DNA from: Fidelibacterota bacterium
GTDB lineage: Bacteria > Fidelibacterota > Marinisomatia > Marinisomatales > TCS55
Length of the DNA stretch: 30,495 nucleotides
Assembly: GCA_046861385.1 (NCBI GenBank)
Contig: JBHHTW010000027.1
Location: forward strand, 1 to 30,495
Direction: 5' to 3'
Shown: piece by piece, positions 2,151-15,177 of the stretch
Layout of the letters: every line of letters begins with the position of its first letter
Numbering within the stretch: the first letter of the stretch is position 1
The notes under the pieces: model-generated
Databases searched by the model: none
The model's input: only the letters and a program-made list of their open reading frames with translations
Told to the model about the DNA's origin: nothing
Program-made: the position numbers and the translations under genes

Positions 2151-4526
2151 TTAATTCTGTTCAACTAACTCTAAGTTTTCTTTTGTTGCTGAAAAAACCG
2201 GGACAGTTCCATTACTCTGTTTAAAATTCGGCTTTTGTTCTGCGGTCTCACTTTGGTTTCCCCAGATGAATTTGGGTTTAAAATACGCAAATAGCGGGGG
2301 AAGTAAAATGAGTGAACCAAACCCACTGGTTATCATTGTAAGGGACACCAGCCAACCGAAGTTTTGTACTGGTGTGAAACCGGAAAAGATTAACACGGAA
2401 AATCCGAGCACATTAGAGAACAGATCAAAAACGATTGCTTTCCCGGCAGTACTCAGCGTTGTTATTGTCGATTTTTCTATATCACGGGATTTTTGAAATT
2501 CTTCTTTAAACCGGCTGACAAAATGAATGGCAAAGTCCACTCCCACGCCAACGGCAATTGCGGTAATAATCGCAGTGCCCATCTCCAACCGAATTCCCAT
2601 ATAGCCCATTAGACCGAATGTAATCATTGTTGCGATTGAAAGGGGAACAATATTAAACAATCCTCCGGAGATGGATCGAAAAACAACCAGACAGAATAAA
2701 AATACAATTGCTATTGCGCTAATGATATTCAGTATTTCACCCCTTGCAATGTATCCGGTCTGCGCCAGCCAGGACATGACTGAACCACCAAATTCAATTT
2801 CCACACCGGGATCAAAATGAGTTTTGGCATATTGACGCAATTCGTGATAGAGCCGATTGTGGTCGTCCTGTTCAGAAGTTTGAATTGTAATTCGAATTTT
2901 TGCGCGTTGGTAATCGTAATCCACAATATCTTCGAAATCACCAGGGTCGCCGGACATTGAATATAATAGCAGGTATTGGCCAATCAGTTCCCGTGAATCC
3001 GGGATCGTTTCATACTGCAGGTCATCGTTGTTCATCACCCGGTTGATCCGTTTGATTATATCTGCAAATGAATTGGAATAACCGACGCCTTCCAGCCCTT
3101 CAGCATATCTTTGGAAATCATCAATCTGTCTGAGTAGGGACGGATCCGTTATGGTGTCGGGTTCTTTACCGGTAATCATAATACTTAAATTGCGGGCGCC
3201 GCCCAGATATTCATTGAACATATTGAAAGATTGTTTAATTCGATGACCATCAGGGAACATATCCGTATAATCTTCGCCTACACGAATTCCGGAGATTCCG
3301 ATTATTGAAGTCACCATTATGATTAATGAGGCAGCGGCAATCAAACCAGGCCGTTTTAAAGATAACCGGGCAAAAGATATTAAGAGTCTATCTCCAAGAT
3401 GTTTATTAATTCTCTCCGGTTTTACAGATGGCTTTTTCAACACCATCAATAAAGCAGGTGGCACAGTTAAAGTGATGATTAGGGCTGCTAATATTCCGAT
3501 AGCAGCGATGATACCGAATTCCCTGATCGACATGATTTTAAATACGGCAAGTGTAGCAGATCCAGCTGCTGAAGTGATACCGGTCATTAACACAGGAGGC
3601 GTCATGGTAAGAACTGTTTCAGTCACTGCTTCAGTAATGGATTTATCACGGATTTCCTCATAATATCGATGTAAAACGTGTATTCCATAAGAACTGGCGA
3701 CTGCCACCATCACCATCGGTAACGCTGAGGAAACAACTGTTACTGCCAGTCCCACATGACCCATAATTCCCATTGTCCAGATAATACTGAGAATGACAAC
3801 CGAAAAGGGAAGCAAAACGCCGCGGATGCTCCTGAAGGAAATAAAAAAGCCAATTAATACCAAAATCAATGCAAACGGAAGCAAAATGGAAACATCGCGT
3901 TGTATTCCAAGATCAATCTCCTGCTGCATAACGGGTTCTCCGTTGGTGTATATCCTCTCGGGTCCACTATATTTTTTAGCGATAGCAGTTACCTTATCAT
4001 AAACGGCAGCTTGATCGTACCCACGTTCAATATTTGCGGTGATTACCGTACTGCTGAAATCCTTGGAAACCAATTTTCCATAGACCAGAGAGTTCGATTG
4101 AACGTCGGTGCGGATTTGATTGATTCCTTCAGTTGTTTCAGGAACCGTTTCCATAAAAGGTCCCACATCGAGTCCCCACTCGCGTCCCTTGATATTGTTT
4201 AGGGTAGCAAGACTGGTAATCTGATCTTCAATAACACCCTCAACCTGTTTTAATTCTTCAGAGATATCCGCTATTTTCTGAAGTGTTTGCGCATTAAAAA
4301 TATCGTCCGCCTTAATTCCAATCATGACCATGTCCTTTTCGCCAAAGACTTCTTCCAGCCGGTCATTCGTGGCAATTATTGGATCATCCTTCGGCAGTTC
4401 CGAGTCGTAATTGTTGCGGGTTTCTATCTTAGTAATTCCCGATCCAATGATAACTGTAAGTATCGCAATCAGTACAAGAACTAATTTGGGATAATTGGTA
4501 ATGAGTTTGGCAAATTGTTTAAGCAT
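2151..4526 (-). CDS. MMPL/RND family exporter
   Basis: 791 aa, two repeats of TM + periplasmic domain + TM bundle; 'GVGVDFAIHF' in second repeat; SD AGGAG upstream. Confidence 0.9.
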   Translation of the reverse strand: MLKQFAKLITNYPKLVLVLIAILTVIIGSGITKIETRNNYDSELPKDDPIIATNDRLEEVFGEKDMVMIGIKADDIFNAQTLQKIADISEELKQVEGVIEDQITSLATLNNIKGREWGLDVGPFMETVPETTEGINQIRTDVQSNSLVYGKLVSKDFSSTVITANIERGYDQAAVYDKVTAIAKKYSGPERIYTNGEPVMQQEIDLGIQRDVSILLPFALILVLIGFFISFRSIRGVLLPFSVVILSIIWTMGIMGHVGLAVTVVSSALPMVMVAVASSYGIHVLHRYYEEIRDKSITEAVTETVLTMTPPVLMTGITSAAGSATLAVFKIMSIREFGIIAAIGILAALIITLTVPPALLMVLKKPSVKPERINKHLGDRLLISFARLSLKRPGLIAAASLIIMVTSIIGISGIRVGEDYTDMFPDGHRIKQSFNMFNEYLGGARNLSIMITGKEPDTITDPSLLRQIDDFQRYAEGLEGVGYSNSFADIIKRINRVMNNDDLQYETIPDSRELIGQYLLLYSMSGDPGDFEDIVDYDYQRAKIRITIQTSEQDDHNRLYHELRQYAKTHFDPGVEIEFGGSVMSWLAQTGYIARGEILNIISAIAIVFLFCLVVFRSISGGLFNIVPLSIATMITFGLMGYMGIRLEMGTAIITAIAVGVGVDFAIHFVSRFKEEFQKSRDIEKSTITTLSTAGKAIVFDLFSNVLGFSVLIFSGFTPVQNFGWLVSLTMITSGFGSLILLPPLFAYFKPKFIWGNQSETAEQKPNFKQSNGTVPVFSATKENLELVEQN

Positions 4527-5400: not shown

Positions 5401-8049
5401 TTAAAGATTGAATAAATGATTAAATTTGATCAGAAAAATATTTTCCTGATCAGCGTCAAATAGATCATACAAATCATTTCCATAATTAAAATCACCCATT
5501 TCTACAAAATCTGTTATTCCCTGAGACCATACCAAATAAAGCGTTGATCCCGGGCGGTATTCCCATCGTAAAACCAGATTTGAATTAAACTGTCTATAAT
5601 TAAAATCTAAATTTGGAATTGAATAATTGAGTATATTGTCTGAATCTTCGTCGATCTCCCACATTTCAGTGTCTTGATTATAACTCATTTCGTCATCCGA
5701 ATATGAATAAAACCGTTCATCATAATTTTCACCTTTTGGATCTGTTAATTTTATAAAACGATCATATTTTCCCGCAGTAACAAACGGAGAACCGTAGTAT
5801 TGAAGAGATAAGTCAGGAGTTAAGGTCCAGTCCAGACGAAAGGTTGAAGAGAGTGTTTTTTGATCGAAGTGGGCGAGGAGATACTCATCAGTTTGATTCT
5901 GAATGTCGTAAGACGGTTCATAATCTGACCAATTCGCCCATGTATCTATTTGGTGGTCATAATTGATTGAGAATCTTAATAGAATATTTGTTACTGGACG
6001 CCAGTCAATATTCGAATTGATACCCGTCCATTTTGAACCCATGACAGCCTTTCCTCTGTGGCCATTAAAATTAATAGATAAATCTTTATTTTGATTGCTT
6101 CCTGCAAAAAACCAACCATTTAGCCCTCCATCTGTTTTAATTGAAGGTCCGCCCCAGAGCGCAGTTGTATGAAGACCAGGGCCATCATAGTTTATTCCCA
6201 TTCCAAAATTCCAGTAATTTAATAATGTTACTCGAAAATTAACATTACCACCGATTGGGTGAGCTTCTTGCCCAAAGTTGGTGGAATGCCAAATACTCAT
6301 ATTTGACTGACAATTTCGTAAATATTTTCCAGGGTCGTTTTCCTGACGACTTAACCACAGAAATTGCACCTGGTTATCTACATTTCTATGATACCCGAGA
6401 TCGTTGGCTTCAAAACCTGGAGAAAACACCCATTGCCCAACTCCCCATCGCCAATCACCGTTTACTTTGAATAACCCAACATTTTCAGTAAATCCGGTTA
6501 GATGAGTCGCGGAAGAATCAACATTTAAATACGAAGCATCGGATCGCTGAAAATAATGGTTAGAACTTCTCTGCGTATTAATGATGGCTTCAGGTTTTCC
6601 AATAACCTCGGAAAAGGCAACTCCGCCTAATATCATATAGGAATCATTGGCAAAAAGATGCGTAAAATCTAATCCAGCTGAATACGCATTCGAATGGAGC
6701 CATTCCAAATGAGCGTTATCAATTTTTCTGTTAGTCGCGGTGACTATTCCTCCAAATGTCGTCTTTCCTTCTCTAAAATCTTTTTGAATACGATTTACGG
6801 AATAATTTGTGAGTGGTTCAATCGTTTGTTTAAAACTTGAACTATCTACATATTCAATATTCGCGATTTCCTCCGACGTCAATGCATCTAAAATCCCAAT
6901 AGACCAGCCACTGCTGGTTTTTCCGCTTAGTTTTGCTGCCCCCAGGATCCGCGTTGAATTTGGTTCAGCGATATACCCATCGGAATATTCACCCCAGTTG
7001 GCACTGTAATGGGGGCTTCTTCCAATTCTTCTAGTATAAAATAATGAATTTCTACTTTGATCTCCATCTCCGATACCCAGTGCATAATTAAATATATTAC
7101 CACCTTCAACAAAAAACGGTCGTTTTTCTTCAAAATATGATTCGAAAGCAGACAAGTTGAGTTCAGCTGGATCAGCTTCCACCTGGCCAAAATCAGGATT
7201 GATTGTAATATCCAGAGTCAAATTATTGGTCACTCCGAATTTTACATCCAGACCTGTGGTATTCAGTAAATTATAGTTTTTCGGATGCACTGGGTTTTTA
7301 TATAGTTTTGAATGTTCGATTTGACCAGTTGTGTACGGAATAACTTGAAGTTGTTTTTGCTGCGGTATATCTTTTAGATTATTCAGCTCACCAAAATGTC
7401 TGACAAAACCCTGCTCATCCTTTGACCAGTAAGTCCAATAATCTTCCTCATTTTTAGTTGCTATTTGACGTTCGATTTGAAAGCCCCAAACTTGCGAGTC
7501 CGCTTTATCAAATCGCAGTTCCCTAAAAGGTATTTTAAACTCTGCTGACCAGCCTCCATCAAAATAGGTTGTTTCTCCTTCCCAGACGGCATCCCAGTTT
7601 CTATCAGAGTTTTCATCATCGGACCAGCGAATATCTCTTTTTACACCGTCAGGATTTAACCCAAACTGAAATGCAGTCCGGTTATCATTATAACTATCAA
7701 TATAGACATAAAGCCAATCACTGGGGGACCATTCATCCCGCCGGGTTAATACGCTTTTAATGGTATTTGGATCAGAATAGTATGCTTTGATACCAACATA
7801 TAAATTATCGAGGTCATAACAGACCGAGAATTCAGTCTGTTCCGAAGGGACCTCATTTTCAATAGGTTCGCGCTGGATAAAATCAAGTCTAAATCCTGCA
7901 TTTCCCCAAATGGGTTCTTCTAACGATCCATCAATAATAATACGGCCGCCATTTAGTTCCTTTGATGAATACACTTTCTCTGTAGCGAGAAGTGGAATAG
8001 TAATTATGATGAAATATATAATAGAAAAATAGTGTATTGTTTTGTTCAT
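5401..8049 (-). CDS. DUF5916 domain protein with N-terminal CBM9-like domain (outer membrane)
   Basis: 'IDGSLEEPIW', 'INPDFGQVEAD', 'EEKRPFFVEG', 'LFYTRRIG', 'NLVLRWEYRPGS' motifs; start at MNKTIHYF (8049) gives a signal peptide (ORF track start 8094). Confidence 0.85.
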   Translation of the reverse strand: MNKTIHYFSIIYFIIITIPLLATEKVYSSKELNGGRIIIDGSLEEPIWGNAGFRLDFIQREPIENEVPSEQTEFSVCYDLDNLYVGIKAYYSDPNTIKSVLTRRDEWSPSDWLYVYIDSYNDNRTAFQFGLNPDGVKRDIRWSDDENSDRNWDAVWEGETTYFDGGWSAEFKIPFRELRFDKADSQVWGFQIERQIATKNEEDYWTYWSKDEQGFVRHFGELNNLKDIPQQKQLQVIPYTTGQIEHSKLYKNPVHPKNYNLLNTTGLDVKFGVTNNLTLDITINPDFGQVEADPAELNLSAFESYFEEKRPFFVEGGNIFNYALGIGDGDQSRNSLFYTRRIGRSPHYSANWGEYSDGYIAEPNSTRILGAAKLSGKTSSGWSIGILDALTSEEIANIEYVDSSSFKQTIEPLTNYSVNRIQKDFREGKTTFGGIVTATNRKIDNAHLEWLHSNAYSAGLDFTHLFANDSYMILGGVAFSEVIGKPEAIINTQRSSNHYFQRSDASYLNVDSSATHLTGFTENVGLFKVNGDWRWGVGQWVFSPGFEANDLGYHRNVDNQVQFLWLSRQENDPGKYLRNCQSNMSIWHSTNFGQEAHPIGGNVNFRVTLLNYWNFGMGINYDGPGLHTTALWGGPSIKTDGGLNGWFFAGSNQNKDLSINFNGHRGKAVMGSKWTGINSNIDWRPVTNILLRFSINYDHQIDTWANWSDYEPSYDIQNQTDEYLLAHFDQKTLSSTFRLDWTLTPDLSLQYYGSPFVTAGKYDRFIKLTDPKGENYDERFYSYSDDEMSYNQDTEMWEIDEDSDNILNYSIPNLDFNYRQFNSNLVLRWEYRPGSTLYLVWSQGITDFVEMGDFNYGNDLYDLFDADQENIFLIKFNHLFNL

Positions 8050-8225
8050 TATCTTTTGATCCATTATTGTTTGATTTATATCAGACAATGTCATTATTAA
8101 TTTGTTGTCCGCATAAAATGTATTTTTAAAAAAACCAATCTTTCAATTCAAATGACCGATCTTATTTTATCATTTCGGATGAAAAGTCAGAGTGCCCTAT
8201 TCCAAGCTGGTTTCATGAAAATCTA

Positions 8226-8641: not shown

Positions 8642-9375
8642 TTATTGCCAACTACCTCCGATTTTCCTGATGGTTCCCGACCCACTTTTTTTGAGAAATA
8701 CATCTTCAGCCTCCCCAGCATATTTCACATCTCCACTGCCGCTGATCTGTGCATCAATATTTTTTTTCACCCAAACTGCCGCATCTCCGGATCCACTGAT
8801 TATGATAAAAGCTTCGTCACTATCAAGGTGCTCACCCGAATAGGTTCCGGAACCGCTAATCGTTATTTTTTGAGATCCAACTTCGCCGGCCAGATAACAA
8901 TTACCTGAACCGGAAATACTCATATTCAATTTATAAGATTGAATGGATTCTATTTCAACATTTCCAGAACCGCTGATCCTGATTTCTAAATGATCTGTTT
9001 CAATATTTTCAGACGTGATTTCTCCTGAACCGGAAATGGATAAACCCTGGATATTTTTCATTGTGATGAAATATTTAATTTTATTCGTGGCAGTTTTCAA
9101 AGGATTTTTCATCCAATGTCTATTTTTAACATCCAAGTAAAGTGTTCTGTTTCGCACATCTGATATGATTTCAGACATCATGTCCTCATCTGCTTCAACC
9201 GTAAGTATCTCTTGAGTTCCCTGGGTTAATATCACCTCGCCATATCCCCTTAATTCTATTTGATCAAATCCATTCACAGATCGATCATCTTTAATAACCT
9301 TTCCAAATGCGATTGAGCTGATGACTGTTGTTAAAACAAAGTTGTGTTCATTGCAAAACCTAATTTTTTAATCAT
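8642..9375 (-). pseudogene. Head GIN domain (DUF2807) protein, frameshifted in its signal peptide
   Basis: Repeated ISGSG beta-helix motifs; ATG at 9375 with AAGGA SD reads MIKKLGFAMNTTLF*, while the main frame reads ..FVLTTVISSIAFGKVIKDDRSVNGFD; the two frames are offset by 1 nt near 9340. Confidence 0.7.
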
Positions 9376-9596: not shown

Positions 9597-10133
9597 ATGA
9601 AGAAAATAATCATAACAACCTTACTCATTCTGCCGTTGATGGTGGCATCGGCGATCGTCCTAAATCAGTCAGCTGGAATTCTGGCCGGCGAAGGCCATGC
9701 CCGCACCCACGATTTTACCGTCACTGCAACCAGCTACGATTTGGATATCAGCGATACGGACACCAATGGAGAACGTTCAATTAAATTGACCGTTCCCGTC
9801 AAAGATATTGATACTGGAATCGGAATGCGTAATACCCATATGAGAACAAGTATGTTTGATCAAAAAAATAATCCGAACATTATTTTTACTGCCAATACTG
9901 ATGCAGAATTAGCCGTTGGATCAGTGGATCTGAATGGGGTTCTGACCATTAACGGTGTATCAAAAGCTCATGTATTAAACATAACTATAGAAAATAACTC
10001 AAACGACTTAATTGCCAGCGGTCAAACGGAAATTATACTCACGGAATTTGATCTACCCTTAGTTGGTATGGGACCCATGAAAATATTAGATCATGTCGAT
10101 ATGGCCTTTAACATAATTTTGCCAAAACAATAG
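9597..10133 (+). CDS. YceI family (lipid/polyisoprenoid-binding) periplasmic protein
   Basis: Signal peptide; 'VPVKDIDTGIGMRNTHMR', 'P.IIF', 'GVLTINGVSK' motifs; SD GAGGA. Confidence 0.85.
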   Translation: MKKIIITTLLILPLMVASAIVLNQSAGILAGEGHARTHDFTVTATSYDLDISDTDTNGERSIKLTVPVKDIDTGIGMRNTHMRTSMFDQKNNPNIIFTANTDAELAVGSVDLNGVLTINGVSKAHVLNITIENNSNDLIASGQTEIILTEFDLPLVGMGPMKILDHVDMAFNIILPKQ

Positions 10134-10141
10134 AAAATCTG

Positions 10142-10648
10142 TTGTTCGGAAATTTAGCGAGAATCAGCATTGTCATATTTACGATGGCAAGCGGGTTTAA
10201 TTACGCTCAGGACCTTCCTGATTCTGTACGGACTGCTGACAATGAGACCGTATCCTGGAAAGAGGTCAGGGATCAAAAGTGGGTTCTATTATATTTTTAC
10301 AGAGGAAATTGGTGAAAATATTGTAACCGGCAGGTTGCCGAAATCGTTGCCCGATACGATCAATTTTTAGATCTAAACTTGAAATTGGTCGCCATCAGCG
10401 CTGAATCTGCTACCGATAGTAAAACCATGAAGGACAGACACAAAGCACCTTTTTTGTTTATTGCGGATGAATCGCTGGAGCTTATCGATTATTATCAATT
10501 TAGAAACAACGATATTGCTCATCCGGGATTTAGTTTACTTCATCACGGCAACGTGGTGTGGAGACAGCGAGAAATGAAATTCATCCGTAAAGATGCACAA
10601 ACAATATTACGGCAGGTTCAAACTGCTCAACTGAATAGCAGCCCATAA
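10142..10648 (+). CDS. Peroxiredoxin-like (AhpC/TSA, redoxin) selenoprotein with UxxC motif
   Basis: One frame from TTG 10142 to TAA 10648 (168 aa) broken only by TGA at 10313-10315 in 'LYFYRGNW-U-KYC', matching FYRGxWCPxC; signal-peptide-like N-terminus; the 10379..10648 ORF is its C-terminal half; start codon uncertain. Confidence 0.85.
10323..10350 (+). promoter_or_regulatory. Bacterial SECIS-like hairpin
   Basis: CGGCA-GGT-TGCCG upper stem-loop (10328-10340) starts 12 nt after the TGA; GTAAC/GTTGC lower stem; G-containing apical loop resembles E. coli fdhF GCAGGUCUGC. Confidence 0.7.
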
Positions 10649-10665: not shown

Positions 10666-11613
10666 ATGACTAATCAACAACATGATTATGGTCCCATAGC
10701 CATATACCGCTCTAAATATCTCATCATTACGGTATTTGGATTGCTGGTAGGATTGGGGTTCTTTTTAGCCGCAATCCATGCATGGTTTTACTTGGGACTG
10801 AAATCCAGCCAATATCAAATACATCAAATATTAATTCTAGGATTTCGCTTGAGCATTTCAATCCCAATTGGTGCTTATCTGATGTCGCGAGCATTGGATA
10901 TGGGAAGATTATTTAGAGGTGAAATAACCCTTCCTGCATTTTTTCGCATACCTGGTTTTGCATTGTGGGGTGGATTATTCAGCGGAATCATTACAATCCT
11001 GGCAACGGCTCATCAATTCAATTGGGAATCATTATTCATTTTTGATGCTGCTGTTTTTGGATTGCCTCTTGCCCAGATGTTTGGACGAATTGGCTGCCTT
11101 AATTATGGATGCTGTCATGGACGTCCCCATGGCGGACGCTGGTCAATTAAATATCAGAATACCGAATCGAAAGTAATTCGAACTTATGCACATTTAAGGG
11201 GGATTGATTTATACCCCACTCAGGTTTACTCCGGGTTGGCAAATTTGGGTATTTATCTTATCATAATCAGCCTGGTTATCCTATTTCCTGCAGCTGAAAA
11301 AGGATTGTTGACCAGCGTTTATTTAATCCTGTACGGATTAAAACGATATATTATAGAATTTTTCCGTGGTGAATTCCCTAGGACCAGTTTTTTGGGACTT
11401 AGTCTCTGGCAATGGTTCAGCCTTGGATTTATTGCAAGTGGAATCATTCTTGGATTATCGCTGATGAATCCATTTTTTGGTTCTCCTACCCGGTATTTTT
11501 ATCTGTCCGATGGTTTCAGCATGGTCCTGGTACTCACGCCCATGACATTATTAGCCACCTCGATCATTACATTCATTTATTCACTCCATGGTAAACGAAT
11601 AGGAAATTGGTAA
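10666..11613 (+). CDS. Prolipoprotein diacylglyceryl transferase (Lgt)-like membrane protein, divergent paralog
   Basis: Multi-TM; 'GRIGCLNYGCCHG', 'PTQVY', 'YGLKRYIIEFFRG', 'SLWQWFS' motifs. Confidence 0.8.
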   Translation: MTNQQHDYGPIAIYRSKYLIITVFGLLVGLGFFLAAIHAWFYLGLKSSQYQIHQILILGFRLSISIPIGAYLMSRALDMGRLFRGEITLPAFFRIPGFALWGGLFSGIITILATAHQFNWESLFIFDAAVFGLPLAQMFGRIGCLNYGCCHGRPHGGRWSIKYQNTESKVIRTYAHLRGIDLYPTQVYSGLANLGIYLIIISLVILFPAAEKGLLTSVYLILYGLKRYIIEFFRGEFPRTSFLGLSLWQWFSLGFIASGIILGLSLMNPFFGSPTRYFYLSDGFSMVLVLTPMTLLATSIITFIYSLHGKRIGNW

Positions 11614-11615
11614 AT

Positions 11616-12695
11616 ATGAAAACAGATTATCCGGTCGCGATTATTGGAGCAGGTCCTTATGGACTGTCTCTGGCCAATCATTTGACTTATAATAATACTC
11701 CATTCATTATCTTGGGTAAACCGATGTCCCTCTGGAAAAGACATACATTTAATTCAATGAATCTCCGCTCGGATTATGCTACCTCGGAAATCTGCCATCC
11801 GACTGGTCAATTTGGATTCGAACGTTTTTGTTCAGATTTTCGTATCCCCCTGAATGACATTAAAGGACAACTTCCCGTGACAGTTTTTCGGAATTACATC
11901 GATTGGTGTCAGTCCCAATTTACGTTTCCAATTAGTCAGCAAATGGTGATCAACCTTAGAAAAACCAATGATGGATTTTTTATTAAAACAGATCAAAATG
12001 AATCATTTACTGCAAAAAAAGTGGTTGTCGCTACTGGAATTGCTCATCATCTTTACATTCCGAATGAGTTAAAAAACCATCCAAGTGTTGTCCACGGTTA
12101 CCACACTCGTCGAATCGAATCAATTCGTAAACAGAATGTATTGGTGGTGGGGGCAGGACAATCAGCTGCAGAAAGTATAGCCGTTTTGAAAGAAAACAAT
12201 AATTCAGTTGAATGGTATACTAGGCGCAACCCTATTTATTTTTCCGAACCGCTGAATATACCAAAATGGCTATTTAATCAAGTCATCCGTTTGCCGCGTT
12301 TTATTCGAATATTAAATCCACTCCTGATTCAGAAACTTTTTGCCTTATTTTCATCGACGACCGTGACTCCAAATTTCAAATCTGTTTTAGAAACGGTATT
12401 CCGTCATCGCACGCTGCCCAAGCTGGAGCAATACGATACTGTCGTTGCCGCCACAGGATACAGGTATAATTTGGGCGAGTTATCATTTATTAAACAATCC
12501 TTAAAATCCAGTATCCGTCAGCATAATAATTATCCAATGGTGTCACCGAGTTTTGAAACCAGTGTTCCGGGTTTATTTTTCCTTGGGGCGATTACTGAGC
12601 CGTTTTTTGGCCCGCCCATGAAATTTATGATCGGGGCTCGTTATAGTTCTGCTGTTCTGGCTCGTGCTCTGTATTCAGTTCAGTATGATTCTTAA
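11616..12695 (+). CDS. FAD/NAD(P)-dependent oxidoreductase (class B flavoprotein monooxygenase-like)
   Basis: Two Rossmann motifs GAGPYG and GAGQSA, 'VVVATG', 'AATGY', 'PGLFFLG'; ATG 11616 preferred over 11607. Confidence 0.8.
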   Translation: MKTDYPVAIIGAGPYGLSLANHLTYNNTPFIILGKPMSLWKRHTFNSMNLRSDYATSEICHPTGQFGFERFCSDFRIPLNDIKGQLPVTVFRNYIDWCQSQFTFPISQQMVINLRKTNDGFFIKTDQNESFTAKKVVVATGIAHHLYIPNELKNHPSVVHGYHTRRIESIRKQNVLVVGAGQSAAESIAVLKENNNSVEWYTRRNPIYFSEPLNIPKWLFNQVIRLPRFIRILNPLLIQKLFALFSSTTVTPNFKSVLETVFRHRTLPKLEQYDTVVAATGYRYNLGELSFIKQSLKSSIRQHNNYPMVSPSFETSVPGLFFLGAITEPFFGPPMKFMIGARYSSAVLARALYSVQYDS

Positions 12696-13515
12696 TCACG
12701 ATTCAGCTCTTCCGGTTCTATTGGAGTCTGCACCATCTTTGGCAGCATACTTGGGAGTTAAAAAAGTCACATTGGTAAGGGAAGATCTTTTGGACGGTGT
12801 GGGTGGAAAAAAACGACGAAGCCTCAATAATATTGTAAATGAAATACCTTTGGGAAAAAATATCCATATCTTATCTTACCAGGGATCTCATACAGCTTTA
12901 ACCCTGTCAGATTTATTACCGGATCATTCAATTATCCTATATGGAAAATCCTATCCAGGTGGAGGATACCGTGATTTTATGACCCAATTGCTTTCGGAAC
13001 GACCCAATGTAAGTCAATTTACAGGGTCGTTATTACCACTGTTGATTAAATACATAATGGCAAAATTTCAATATCCCCATGACTGGTTTATGAATTTTGG
13101 GGGTGCCGTAGGCCATGATGAAATGTATATATCTGCAGCAGAAAAAGCATATCAGAAGATAGGAAATTCAGCACACCATATTGTTCCAGTCGCCAGTGGT
13201 GATTTATTAAAAGCCCTTAAAACGATATTTTCACAGGTAACAGGCATTTTAACGCAACCATGGTACATTCGCATTGTTCAGCGATTCAGACTACCATCAA
13301 GCAGAGGGATGGTTGGCCGTTCGTATTCTGAACGTGAAAGTCTTGTGCGTGATATTTATTTGAAAACGGGATTTGCGTTTGACCCGGTATTTATGGGATC
13401 AGTACTGGAGTATTGCATGCGAAAGACACCGCACTTCGAACATATTTGCTTGTGGGTAACTTGTCCGGGAACCGTATCTGATTTTTTATTAAGTTTCGAT
13501 GATCATAATGGATAA
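12685..13515 (+). CDS. Divergent PLP fold-type II enzyme, ACC deaminase/D-cysteine desulfhydrase-like
   Basis: 'VREDLL..VGGKKRR' ~ KRDDL..GGNKxR; 'NFGG'; 'VPVASG'; 'TGFAFDPVFMG' ~ G..LDPVYTGK; overlaps the upstream stop. Confidence 0.6.
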   Translation: MILNHDSALPVLLESAPSLAAYLGVKKVTLVREDLLDGVGGKKRRSLNNIVNEIPLGKNIHILSYQGSHTALTLSDLLPDHSIILYGKSYPGGGYRDFMTQLLSERPNVSQFTGSLLPLLIKYIMAKFQYPHDWFMNFGGAVGHDEMYISAAEKAYQKIGNSAHHIVPVASGDLLKALKTIFSQVTGILTQPWYIRIVQRFRLPSSRGMVGRSYSERESLVRDIYLKTGFAFDPVFMGSVLEYCMRKTPHFEHICLWVTCPGTVSDFLLSFDDHNG

Positions 13516-13551
13516 TAGCATGAAAACAGATCTGATATTTCCAGTTATAAT

Positions 13552-15177
13552 ATGAAATCTCAACAGATAAAAATAGCCAGAATTTCAGATTTAGAGGATC
13601 GCCAACCAACATACGCTTTAGTCGGAAACACCGATTTGGTTATTATCAAATATGACAATAATATTTCCGTATTTTATGGTCGTTGTCATCATCGGGGGGC
13701 ATTACTCGCAGACGGATATATCAAGGGCAAAAATCTAATCTGTGGCGTTCACTTCTGGGATTATCGATATGATACAGGTGTGAGTGAATATAATAATGAT
13801 GAAGTGCTACACCGATTTTCCACGGATATTCAAGACGGTGATCTATATATTGATAAAGATGAAATATTGGCGTTTGAAAAAACGAATCCACAACCGTTTC
13901 AACGGGAGCAGTACCTGGGCACTTATGCGGATACCCACCCAGAGAGTACCGAGCCTTTTACGGCCTATGTCAAGGAGCTGGCGCAAAACGGTTTAAAAAA
14001 TGTGGGCGCTCACGGCTTCACCGCTGCCATGGGTGTGGATCGAAATATATTACCCAAGTGGGAAGACATTCAATTTCTCCCAGCCCAATTAGCCAAACGT
14101 CCATTGCTGGATGAAGAAGAAGTGTCGACGAAAGTTGTGATTGGCCCTCGAGCGAACAAACCATTAACATTAGACATGCCAATTTTTGTTTCTGATATGA
14201 GTTTCGGGGCCCTATCTCGAGAGGCGAAAATTGCCTTATCCAAAGGAGCGGAATTGTCCGGCACGGGAATCTGTTCCGGTGAGGGCGGCATGCTTCCAGA
14301 GGAACAGGAGAATAATTCACGATATTTTTACGAATTGGCATCAGCAAAATTCGGATTTTCCTGGGATAAACTTAAAAAAGTACAGGCGTTTCATTTTAAA
14401 GGAGGGCAGGGCGCTAAAACCGGAACAGGCGGTCACCTTCCCGGTGATAAAGTAAAGGGAGAAATCGCTGTTGTCCGAAATCTGCCGGAAGGTCAATCGG
14501 CTATTTCACCGGCGGCATTTGCTGATTTGAAATCACCAACAGATTTTCGCAATTTTGCTGACAAGGTGAGAAAAATATCAGGCGGAATCCCTATTGGATT
14601 CAAAATTGCCGCCAGTCATATAGAGGACGACATTCAATTTGCTCTTGATGCGAGTGCAGATTATATCATATTGGATGGCCGGGGCGGTGGCACGGGAGCG
14701 GCACCCACTGTATTACGAAATAATATTAATATTCCCACCATTCCGGCTTTGGCTCGGGCACGCCACTATTTGGATAAAGTAGGCGCGACTAATATCACAC
14801 TGATTATTACGGGTGGATTAAGAATCGCCGATGATATTGCGAAAGCACTGATGCTTGGTGCTGATGCGGTGGCAGTCAGTAATGCAGCATTACAAGCCAT
14901 TGGGTGTATTGGGATGCGGGCGTGCAACACCAATAATTGCCCTGTGGGGATTGCCACGCAAAAGGACCATTTGCGATCGCGGCTGTTGATTGATAAATCT
15001 GCGCAACAATTAGCCAATTATTTTTCAGCAACCAACGACTTGGTTAAGGTAATCACCCGGGCATGTGGATGTAATGATATTTCCCAACTCTCTGTAAATG
15101 ACCTCACTACCTTCAATAATACGATTCAAAAGTTAACAGGGATAAATTATTCCGGGTTATATACAGGCAAGAACTGA
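13552..15177 (+). CDS. Rieske [2Fe-2S] domain fused to FMN-binding glutamate synthase-like domain
   Basis: Rieske CHHRG...CGVH; 'MSFGALS', 'SGEGG', 'QGAKTGTGGHLPG.K', 'DGRGGGTGAAP', Fe-S motif 'CIGMRACNTNNCPVGIATQ'. Confidence 0.9.
   Translation: MKSQQIKIARISDLEDRQPTYALVGNTDLVIIKYDNNISVFYGRCHHRGALLADGYIKGKNLICGVHFWDYRYDTGVSEYNNDEVLHRFSTDIQDGDLYIDKDEILAFEKTNPQPFQREQYLGTYADTHPESTEPFTAYVKELAQNGLKNVGAHGFTAAMGVDRNILPKWEDIQFLPAQLAKRPLLDEEEVSTKVVIGPRANKPLTLDMPIFVSDMSFGALSREAKIALSKGAELSGTGICSGEGGMLPEEQENNSRYFYELASAKFGFSWDKLKKVQAFHFKGGQGAKTGTGGHLPGDKVKGEIAVVRNLPEGQSAISPAAFADLKSPTDFRNFADKVRKISGGIPIGFKIAASHIEDDIQFALDASADYIILDGRGGGTGAAPTVLRNNINIPTIPALARARHYLDKVGATNITLIITGGLRIADDIAKALMLGADAVAVSNAALQAIGCIGMRACNTNNCPVGIATQKDHLRSRLLIDKSAQQLANYFSATNDLVKVITRACGCNDISQLSVNDLTTFNNTIQKLTGINYSGLYTGKN

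Follow-up and report, generated by a model that had tools for sequence, protein, structure and literature searches.

A single in-frame TGA in a Fidelibacterota gene probably encodes the active-site selenocysteine of a putatively exported UxxC redoxin

Does a reading frame broken by one TGA encode two small proteins, a decayed remnant, or a single intact selenoprotein? The question is raised by the forward strand of contig JBHHTW010000027.1 (GenBank assembly GCA_046861385.1) of a Fidelibacterota bacterium; the whole stretch of DNA analyzed, 30,495 nucleotides (nt) long, is referred to here as the window. The listing of open reading frames (ORFs) reports one and the same frame in two pieces, 10142..10315 (57 amino acids (aa), TTG start) and 10379..10648 (89 aa). 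The original prediction held that this frame is open from TTG 10142 save for one TGA, and both the listing and the translation confirm it: TGA 10313-10315 is the sole interruption of 10142..10648(+). When this codon is translated as selenocysteine (Sec, U), a continuous protein of 168 aa results (...WVLLYFYRGNW-U-KYCNRQVAEI...LKLVAIS...), terminated by TAA 10646-10648. We conclude, with a probability of roughly 0.85, that 10142..10648(+) is a single intact gene for a 168-residue selenoprotein in which UGA is read as Sec, and that its product is a UxxC redoxin with an AhpC/TSA fold, acting as an extracytoplasmic selenol/thiol-disulfide oxidoreductase. Gene callers cut the gene in two because its active-site Sec is written as TGA. 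The features on which the argument turns are listed below.

10142..10648, plus strand: coding sequence of the selenoprotein, from TTG through 168 codons to TAA, with a single in-frame TGA
10142..10207, plus strand: N-terminal hydrophobic segment, residues 1-22 (...ARISIVIFTMASGFNYA|QD), delimited by hydrophobicity and low model confidence
10313..10315, plus strand: TGA translated as selenocysteine (U58), shared at this column by 6/6 orthologous genes and aligned with the first Cys of WCxxC
10313..10324, plus strand: redox motif U-K-Y-C (U58, C61), from the translation, the structural model and the alignment of C61 to the peroxidatic Cys of BCP 2cx3
10328..10340, plus strand: hairpin resembling a selenocysteine insertion sequence (SECIS), CGGCA/GGU/UGCCG or CGGC/AGGUU/GCCG, separated from the UGA by a spacer of 12 nt (10316-10327)
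10523..10525, plus strand: codon of Pro128 (HPGF), which occupies the position of the peroxiredoxin catalytic Arg and is probably the cis-proline of a thioredoxin fold

Orthologues were sought with the read-through protein in 233 genomes of the order and by way of the neighbouring Lgt paralogue in 401 genomes of the phylum. Between them, these searches recovered five further orthologues (G004, G195, G056, G390 and G363), with 33-57% identity to the window protein. In all six genes, read as DNA and drawn from four GTDB families, TGA occupies the same column. Downstream of the TGA, selection acts on the protein: across the six genes, invariant residues are written by 2-4 different codons, and R99, R121, P128 and L132 by 3-4. 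In an alignment of 56 homologous sequences the TGA column coincides with the first Cys of WCxxC, the positions corresponding to C58 and C61 being at least 90% conserved. Cys is found at the TGA column only in distant full-length homologues with at most 42% identity. The alignment with homologues that had been proposed as a check thus returned TGA in every orthologous gene and Cys in the distant ones, and the opposite outcome, close relatives that all carry Cys and lack the hairpin, was not encountered.

Public protein data fit a gene that annotation pipelines truncate. A HMMER scan of 1.84 billion protein representatives gave no match at E ≤ 1e-30 and no close Cys-bearing homologue. The six listed matches that reach 50% identity are all fragments (53-104 aa), which either end at residue 57 (...FYRGNW) or start past residue 80, and three additional public N-terminal fragments stop precisely at ...FYRGNW. 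These fragments are named 'hypothetical protein' or 'peroxiredoxin'. The expectation that standard annotation would split the gene is therefore borne out by the public orthologues, which exist only as pieces ending at ...GNW or starting after it, and the present reading corrects the annotation of this gene and of orthologues stored as such truncated entries. As no NCBIfam model attains its cut-off for the read-through protein, automatic pipelines will probably go on splitting the gene. A word-based protein search for relatives of 92-294 aa found none, and a protein-pattern scan of metagenome contigs produced 236 pattern matches, none of which was confirmed. At the DNA level, an unbiased scan for the pattern YFY[R/S]GNW followed by TGN brought up 41 metagenome stretches. 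Only two of these were in-frame orthologues, both with TGA, identical to each other and to the G195 gene over the compared stretch; no match with TGC, TGT or TGG was a relative. Separately, one public protein of 183 aa (P0162, in the cluster of P0067) has the orthologous TGA read as Trp (GNWWNNC); it is full-length but a wrong protein, presumably produced by an alternative genetic code setting.

The genome encodes the complete apparatus for Sec insertion. A selA gene (443 bits) is followed just downstream, on the same contig, by a gene with a SelB wing domain (58.5 bits); selD (403.6 bits) itself carries one in-frame TGA; and tRNA-Sec (selC) is detected by Rfam (62.6 bits) and also by ARAGORN, with anticodon TCA. 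All four genes for which the original prediction had proposed a search are thus present. In the genomes bearing the other orthologues, selA is found in 5/5 and tRNA-Sec scores over the cut-off in 4/5. TGA terminates 359 of the 1205 long ORFs of the genome, in agreement with the earlier statement that there is no genome-wide recoding. Translation of TGA as Trp or Gly was also considered and was rejected, since TGA is a frequent stop codon here and homologues have Cys at the aligned column.

Finally, a single domain extends across the TGA. The Pfam AhpC-TSA model matches residues 29-132 of the read-through protein (3.2e-20, 72.8 bits against a gathering cut-off of 26), and Pfam Redoxin likewise matches across the codon. 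Together with the TGA in 6/6 genes and the Sec machinery, this supports the selenoenzyme that had been suggested from the letters of the window.

The hairpin that had been noticed 12 nt past the TGA is indeed found, at 10328-10340. The minimal SECIS element of E. coli lies about 11 nt after the UGA. Using a simple definition of our own (a stem of at least 4 pairs, at least 3 of them G-C; a loop of 3-8 nt containing GG or GT; a spacer of 9-14 nt), we find such structures behind 60 of the 5141 TGA trinucleotides sampled in this genome and behind 1 of the 453 TGA stops of ORFs of at least 200 codons. A hairpin of this sort is uncommon after TGA, but not vanishingly rare. Across the six orthologous genes its position is kept in all, as is the loop AGGU[U/A/G]; the core CGGC...GCCG is kept in five. 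Codon usage points in the same direction: among 18 invariant columns with at least fourfold degenerate codons, only A66, in the 3' arm, is written by a single codon (GCC) in all six genes. R63, in the 5' arm, is CGG in 5/6, whereas 3-4 codons are in use at each of the four remaining invariant Arg columns, and Q64 is CAG in 6/6 although CAG is the minor Gln codon of the genome (36%). The third base of the loop Val codon is free to vary (U, A, G). An Rfam scan of 10200-10500 found no SECIS family, its sole match being a chance miRNA (E 0.21). Taken together, the hairpin is probably a SECIS element, on the basis of its position, its loop, its synonymous conservation and its likeness to the hairpins of sister genes described below, and not of covariation or folding energy.

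To place the protein among thioredoxin-fold enzymes, a structural model and profile alignments were used. The AlphaFold2 model, built from the 56-homologue alignment, has a mean predicted local distance difference test (pLDDT) score of 92.5, and U58 stands immediately before helix 59-70 and after strand 47-52, in the model the classical active-site position of the thioredoxin fold. By hmmsearch, matches among solved structures include BCP 2cx3 (7.7e-34) and the ResA-type 4nmu (1.6e-23). Foldseek returned at least 500 PDB matches at E ≤ 0.001, of which the best are all peroxiredoxins (Prx; TM 0.69-0.76), including 2a4v, 3hjp and 4xra (TM 0.70-0.73). The active site of a Prx consists of a PxxxT/SxxC motif plus a catalytic Arg located before strand beta-6. 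Here the Prx-type thioredoxin fold is present, but neither the PxxxT/SxxC motif nor the catalytic Arg is. In the profile alignment to BCP 2cx3/2ywn, FYRGsWCpyC lies opposite FFPAAFSPVC of 2cx3, with Arg54 on the Prx Pro, Sec58 on Ser/Thr and C61 on the peroxidatic Cys. Further along, 'iavPavf' lies opposite 'VAKRAVF', which puts Pro128 on the Arg; Pro128 is unchanged in the six orthologous genes, where it is written by four different codons. As the Pro, Thr/Ser and Arg positions of Prx are all replaced, the protein appears to be a CxxC-type (here UxxC) redoxin rather than a canonical peroxidase, and the predicted active site, with its cis-Pro-like proline, fits the former and not a canonical peroxiredoxin. 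The AhpC/TSA peroxiredoxin-like label given in the original prediction accordingly stands for the domain match and the fold, whereas the active site is of the CxxC redoxin type, with Sec58 at the Thr/Ser position and Pro128 at that of the Arg.

The N-terminus suggests a location outside the cytoplasm. Residues 1-22 are a probable signal peptide of the Sec secretion type or a membrane anchor, with a putative cleavage site. The 11-residue Kyte-Doolittle maximum is 2.0 for the window protein and 1.9-3.3 for seven orthologue or fragment N-termini. A hydrophobic stretch is present in all eight, mostly after K/R residues and followed by small residues and Q/E, and residues 1-20 have a pLDDT of 60-64 in the AlphaFold2 model. 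That the cell is diderm follows from the Omp85, LolA-like and Lgt-family proteins encoded in the window. A DsbD/CcdA-type transporter (DsbD_TM, 99.7 bits) is also encoded in the genome, and a second redoxin-like frame comes shortly after its gene; a periplasmic reducing pathway thus exists.

Several observations weigh against this reading. The hairpin is short (4-5 pairs) and its folding z-scores range from -0.8 to -2.2 (-1.25 to -1.28 for the window gene); between 7 and 43 of 200 shuffled sequences fold as well as the hairpin stretch. With its energy unremarkable and such hairpins also occurring by chance, the hairpin alone is weak evidence. One core pair is broken in G004 (CGAC...GCCG), and RNAalifold and pair counting on four and six sequences found 0/6 pairs to be compensatory, three pairs never varying. 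Since the conserved peptide N-R-Q-V-A is written in the same nucleotides, the hairpin owes some of its conservation to the protein. In G004, a 95% complete bin, tRNA-Sec does not rise above the cut-off. As to the N-terminus, hydrophobicity is the sole basis for the signal peptide and its cleavage site, TTG 10142 has no visible Shine-Dalgarno sequence, and a start at ATG 10184 would drop the hydrophobic segment. The function, lastly, is proposed from family resemblance.

Two alternatives deny that a selenoprotein is made at all. An assembly or sequencing error had to be considered, since one wrong base suffices to turn TGC or TGT into TGA and the source of the window is a metagenome bin (2.43 Mb, 104 contigs, 97.85% complete). 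One sample yielded two run assemblies (word depth 53 and 39), in both of which the stretch is identical (0 differences) down to the TGA; they thus show neither TGC nor TGT, a finding that had been named as one that would undermine the prediction, though this sample is possibly the window's own source. Two other runs miss the TGA position (X5 without any coverage, X6 covering 10100-10268 only), so neither is informative on this codon, and among the sequencing runs none of RNA was listed as carrying the stretch. Since TGA recurs in all the separately assembled genes of other species, we regard an error as having next to no chance of being the explanation. The gene might instead be a pseudogene or two small genes, TGA 10313 being a true stop and only the 57-aa and/or 89-aa pieces being made. 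Gene callers yield just those pieces, and the hairpin is thermodynamically weak and lacks covariation. Against this, a single Pfam domain crosses the stop, the stop sits in the same column in 6/6 genes at 33-57% identity with protein conserved on both sides, the family has its catalytic Cys at that column, and the genome has the complete Sec machinery; this explanation is, in our judgment, very improbable.

Other alternatives accept Sec and differ in what the protein does or where it resides. A true peroxidase would reduce peroxide, with Sec58 (GPx-like) or Cys61 (Prx-like) as the peroxidatic residue, and would not be a disulfide oxidoreductase. The nearest solved sequences and folds are indeed BCP/AhpC peroxiredoxins (2cx3 in sequence; 2a4v, 3hjp and 4xra by Foldseek), C61 lines up with the peroxidatic Cys, and in three related genomes a CMD (AhpD-like) gene replaces the redoxin gene upstream of the YceI/Lgt-paralogue module described below. 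Three of the four Prx catalytic residues are nevertheless exchanged (Pro to Arg54, Thr/Ser to Sec58, Arg to Pro128), and ResA-type thiol-disulfide oxidoreductases also score well (4nmu). Moreover, PF00578 UxxC proteins are classed as thiol:disulfide oxidoreductases in Table 1 of PMC13188914 and in PMC1088965. We therefore consider peroxidase activity as the main function unlikely. The protein could also be cytoplasmic, starting at ATG 10184 without an export signal. ATG is the commonest start codon, TTG 10142 has no visible ribosome-binding site, and some Cys homologues (P0008, P0018) have no N-terminal extension. By contrast, all orthologues have an in-frame hydrophobic N-terminal stretch, in most cases after K/R, and public gene callers put ATG starts upstream of it (P0024, P0067, G195, G056); TTG 10142 also lies 8 nt past the stop of the upstream gene, a distance that fits translational coupling. 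A cytoplasmic enzyme is on balance improbable.

An extracytoplasmic selenoenzyme would operate as follows. SelB and Sec-tRNA(Sec) would decode UGA 10313-10315 as Sec, directed by the G-containing hairpin 12 nt downstream, and the N-terminal hydrophobic segment would take the protein across the inner membrane or anchor it there. Sec58 may then attack a substrate disulfide, or a sulfenic or peroxide oxygen, after which Cys61 would resolve the intermediate as a selenylsulfide. Re-reduction would probably proceed via the DsbD/CcdA-type transporter of the genome. Judging from gene spacing, the redoxin gene may share a transcript with the genes for the YceI-like protein, the Lgt paralogue and the flavoprotein, and the substrate of the redoxin may lie within this YceI/Lgt-paralogue/flavoprotein module.

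The gene is not a new sort of thing: its family, motif and mode of decoding are already established in bacterial selenoproteomics, and it leaves the understanding of selenoproteins unchanged. PF00578 UxxC selenoproteins have been catalogued since 2004-2008 (PMC1088965, PMC2398784) and are frequent in marine metagenomes. Twenty-two Prx-like UxxC sequences are reported from the Sargasso Sea (PMC1088965), a 2006 survey counted the PF00578 UxxC family in several deltaproteobacterial genomes (PMC1794560), and Table 2 of PMC2398784 lists 'Prx-like 1, pfam00578, UxxC' with 225 selenoproteins in 37 Global Ocean Sampling (GOS) samples and 2,740 Cys homologues. A 2026 review gives, in its Table 1, a 'Prx-like thiol:disulfide oxidoreductase, PF00578, UxxC/UxxU' as 'predicted with high confidence' (PMC13188914). 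The window protein shares with this Prx-like UxxC family the AhpC-TSA domain (PF00578 at 72.8 against 26), a UxxC motif at a thioredoxin-type site where Sec-peroxiredoxins have TxxU, Cys homologues with CxxC, and a SECIS-like hairpin directly 3' of the UGA with a G in the apical loop; the likeness is one of domain and motif, not of alignment to reference members. Unlike that family, the present clade lacks any Cys member beyond about 42% identity, has an export-like segment at its N-terminus, and sits in a YceI/Lgt-paralogue/flavoprotein module shared by none of 79 Cys-homologue loci. It is also a clean example of a clade in which Sec was not swapped for Cys. A literature search on Marinimicrobia selenoproteins found no paper with either term in its title or abstract; the sequence lists in the supplements of the surveys might already contain this clade.

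With BCP/PrxQ and AhpC peroxiredoxins, including Sec-containing ones (TxxU), the protein shares the fold and has C61 at the position of the peroxidatic Cys, but it carries Arg54, Sec58 and Pro128 where Prx have Pro, Thr and Arg, so that within the four-residue motif Sec stands at the opposite end. The same genome does encode a genuine Prx selenoprotein with TPGU (L167). ResA, TlpA and CcmG resemble it in their CxxC-type centre following a Trp, their cis-Pro proline, their N-terminal anchor or signal, and electron supply through DsbD/CcdA, which is encoded here. It differs from them in having Sec for the nucleophilic Cys and no cytochrome c maturation context, and it scores 27 bits against the NCBIfam ResA model (NF002854; cut-off 170). 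The best NCBIfam match is to the SelL-related model NF040769 (2.5e-9, residues 29-122), with which it has the Prx-like fold and a four-residue redox motif in common; at 37 bits against a cut-off of 120, however, it is not a member.

We also analyzed the gene neighbourhood, which on the plus strand comprises the following.

9597..10133, plus strand: YceI-like gene, upstream (Pfam YceI 2e-17), its stop 8 nt before the TTG
10666..11613, plus strand: divergent Lgt paralogue, downstream (Pfam LGT 6.8e-27), starting 17 nt past the redoxin stop
11607..12695, plus strand: flavin-dependent oxidoreductase (Pyr_redox_3, Pfam 1.7e-24), overlapping the Lgt paralogue by 7 nt
10666-15177, plus strand: module of Lgt paralogue, flavoprotein, 283-aa protein, and Rieske plus glutamate-synthase-like flavin mononucleotide (FMN) protein

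A terminator scan found none between 9597 and 13515. The true lgt is located on another contig and scores 182.7 bits, against 95.1 bits for the paralogue. Every NCBIfam match of the flavoprotein falls under its cut-off, and the 283-aa protein that follows it has no Pfam or NCBIfam match. The order redoxin, Lgt paralogue, flavoprotein recurs in G004, G195 and G056, and the YceI gene adjoins the redoxin gene in G004, G390 and G363 as well. The Lgt paralogue directly follows the redoxin gene in 4/6 orthologue loci; in the other two (G390, G363) the YceI gene lies between them. A search with the Lgt paralogue in 401 genomes sampled from the phylum located the first three genes of the module in 25, often beside a TetR gene; at 24 of 26 loci the flavoprotein gene comes next after the Lgt paralogue. 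The redoxin gene stands beside the module in 6 of these 25 genomes, that of the window included; the 1.5-kb flank in the remaining genomes holds either a TetR regulator or the CMD gene, the latter in three. Neither the Lgt paralogue nor the flavoprotein was found next to any of the 79 Cys-homologue loci. Given this absence and the presence of the redoxin in only 6/25 genomes, the link to the module is specific to the Sec clade and not obligatory for the module.

This conserved place beside the Lgt paralogue and the flavoprotein is the only unexplained feature of the gene, and it may reflect functional coupling of the redoxin to the module. Tentatively, a Sec-only clade of extracytoplasmic UxxC redoxins might act as the dedicated redox partner of an envelope module (YceI lipid-binding protein, Lgt paralogue, flavoprotein, 283-aa protein and Rieske/glutamate-synthase-like protein), serving periplasmic lipid or lipoprotein modification and not general antioxidant defence; we put this forward as a doubtful, though conceivable, role. 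Whether the redoxin serves the conserved Lgt-paralogue module, and to what end that module works, is the question that the locus raises. The minus strand upstream (5401-8094, 8642-9277 and 2151-4526) offers an envelope-related context, with genes for a DUF5916 protein (897 aa), for a DUF2807 protein, putatively an adhesin head domain, for a transporter of the MMPL/RND type accompanied by a LolA-like protein, and for a TetR regulator.

Other selenoprotein genes were sought in the same genome. Among 277 candidate read-through ORFs, 16 had a hairpin and nine were put to Pfam; in five further genes a Pfam domain crosses an in-frame TGA. A stricter coding-potential screen missed both the redoxin gene and selD, short upstream parts giving noisy scores. 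The genes recovered are as follows.

L167, contig C86: Prx (TPGU), Pfam domain spanning the TGA
L171, contig C30: CMD/AhpD-like protein (CHYU), Pfam domain spanning the TGA
L173, contig C23: DUF1223 protein (UPSC), Pfam domain spanning the TGA
L170, contig C78: HdrA-like protein (CSIU), with flanking domain matches, accepted by motif
L003, contig C97: selD (GSG-U-ACK), carrying an in-frame TGA
L168:1-2088, C93:19984-22071, minus strand: protein of 695 aa with FFTGW-U-PVC within AhpC-TSA (6.1e-24)
L169:1-1071, C100:8823-9893, plus strand: thioredoxin domain with USWC, hydrophobic N-terminus and C-terminal TPR repeats

With these at least seven other TGA-containing genes, the redoxin gene brings to at least eight the selenoproteome of an uncultured marine or vent bacterium with a 2.4-Mb genome. 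The hairpins of the sister genes, selD included, have spacers of 9, 11, 12, 14, 20 and 28 nt and loops GGA, GUU, UGGAU, CGGGAU, GGUC and GUU; the CMD gene has no hairpin passing our own filter. That of L169 (CGGC/UGGAU/GCCG, spacer 12) is near-identical to the hairpin of the redoxin gene. In L168, in which a hairpin UCCGGA/GUU/UUCGGA lies 11 nt past the TGA, the AhpC-TSA domain shares the polypeptide with LVIVD repeats, an FlgD Ig-like domain and a C-terminal Por_Secre_tail sorting domain, and from this architecture the protein looks like a secreted or surface-attached selenoprotein.

Three of the nine candidates (L172, L174 and L175) have no Pfam match. L172:1-1191 (C10:919-2109, minus strand) encodes 396 aa with DPCG-U-KKNP and a 7-pair hairpin at a spacer of 12; by motif only, it recalls the 'COG0737 UshA-like, CxU' selenoprotein row in Table 2 of PMC2398784. 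L174:1-963 (C56:64552-65514, plus strand) encodes 320 aa with a signal-peptide-like start and, only a few residues beyond it, the TGA in the context ...AAYAQGGIS-U-RRPILPGG, followed at a spacer of 12 by a hairpin CUCCC/GGGC/GGGAG, and is a possible uncatalogued selenoprotein.

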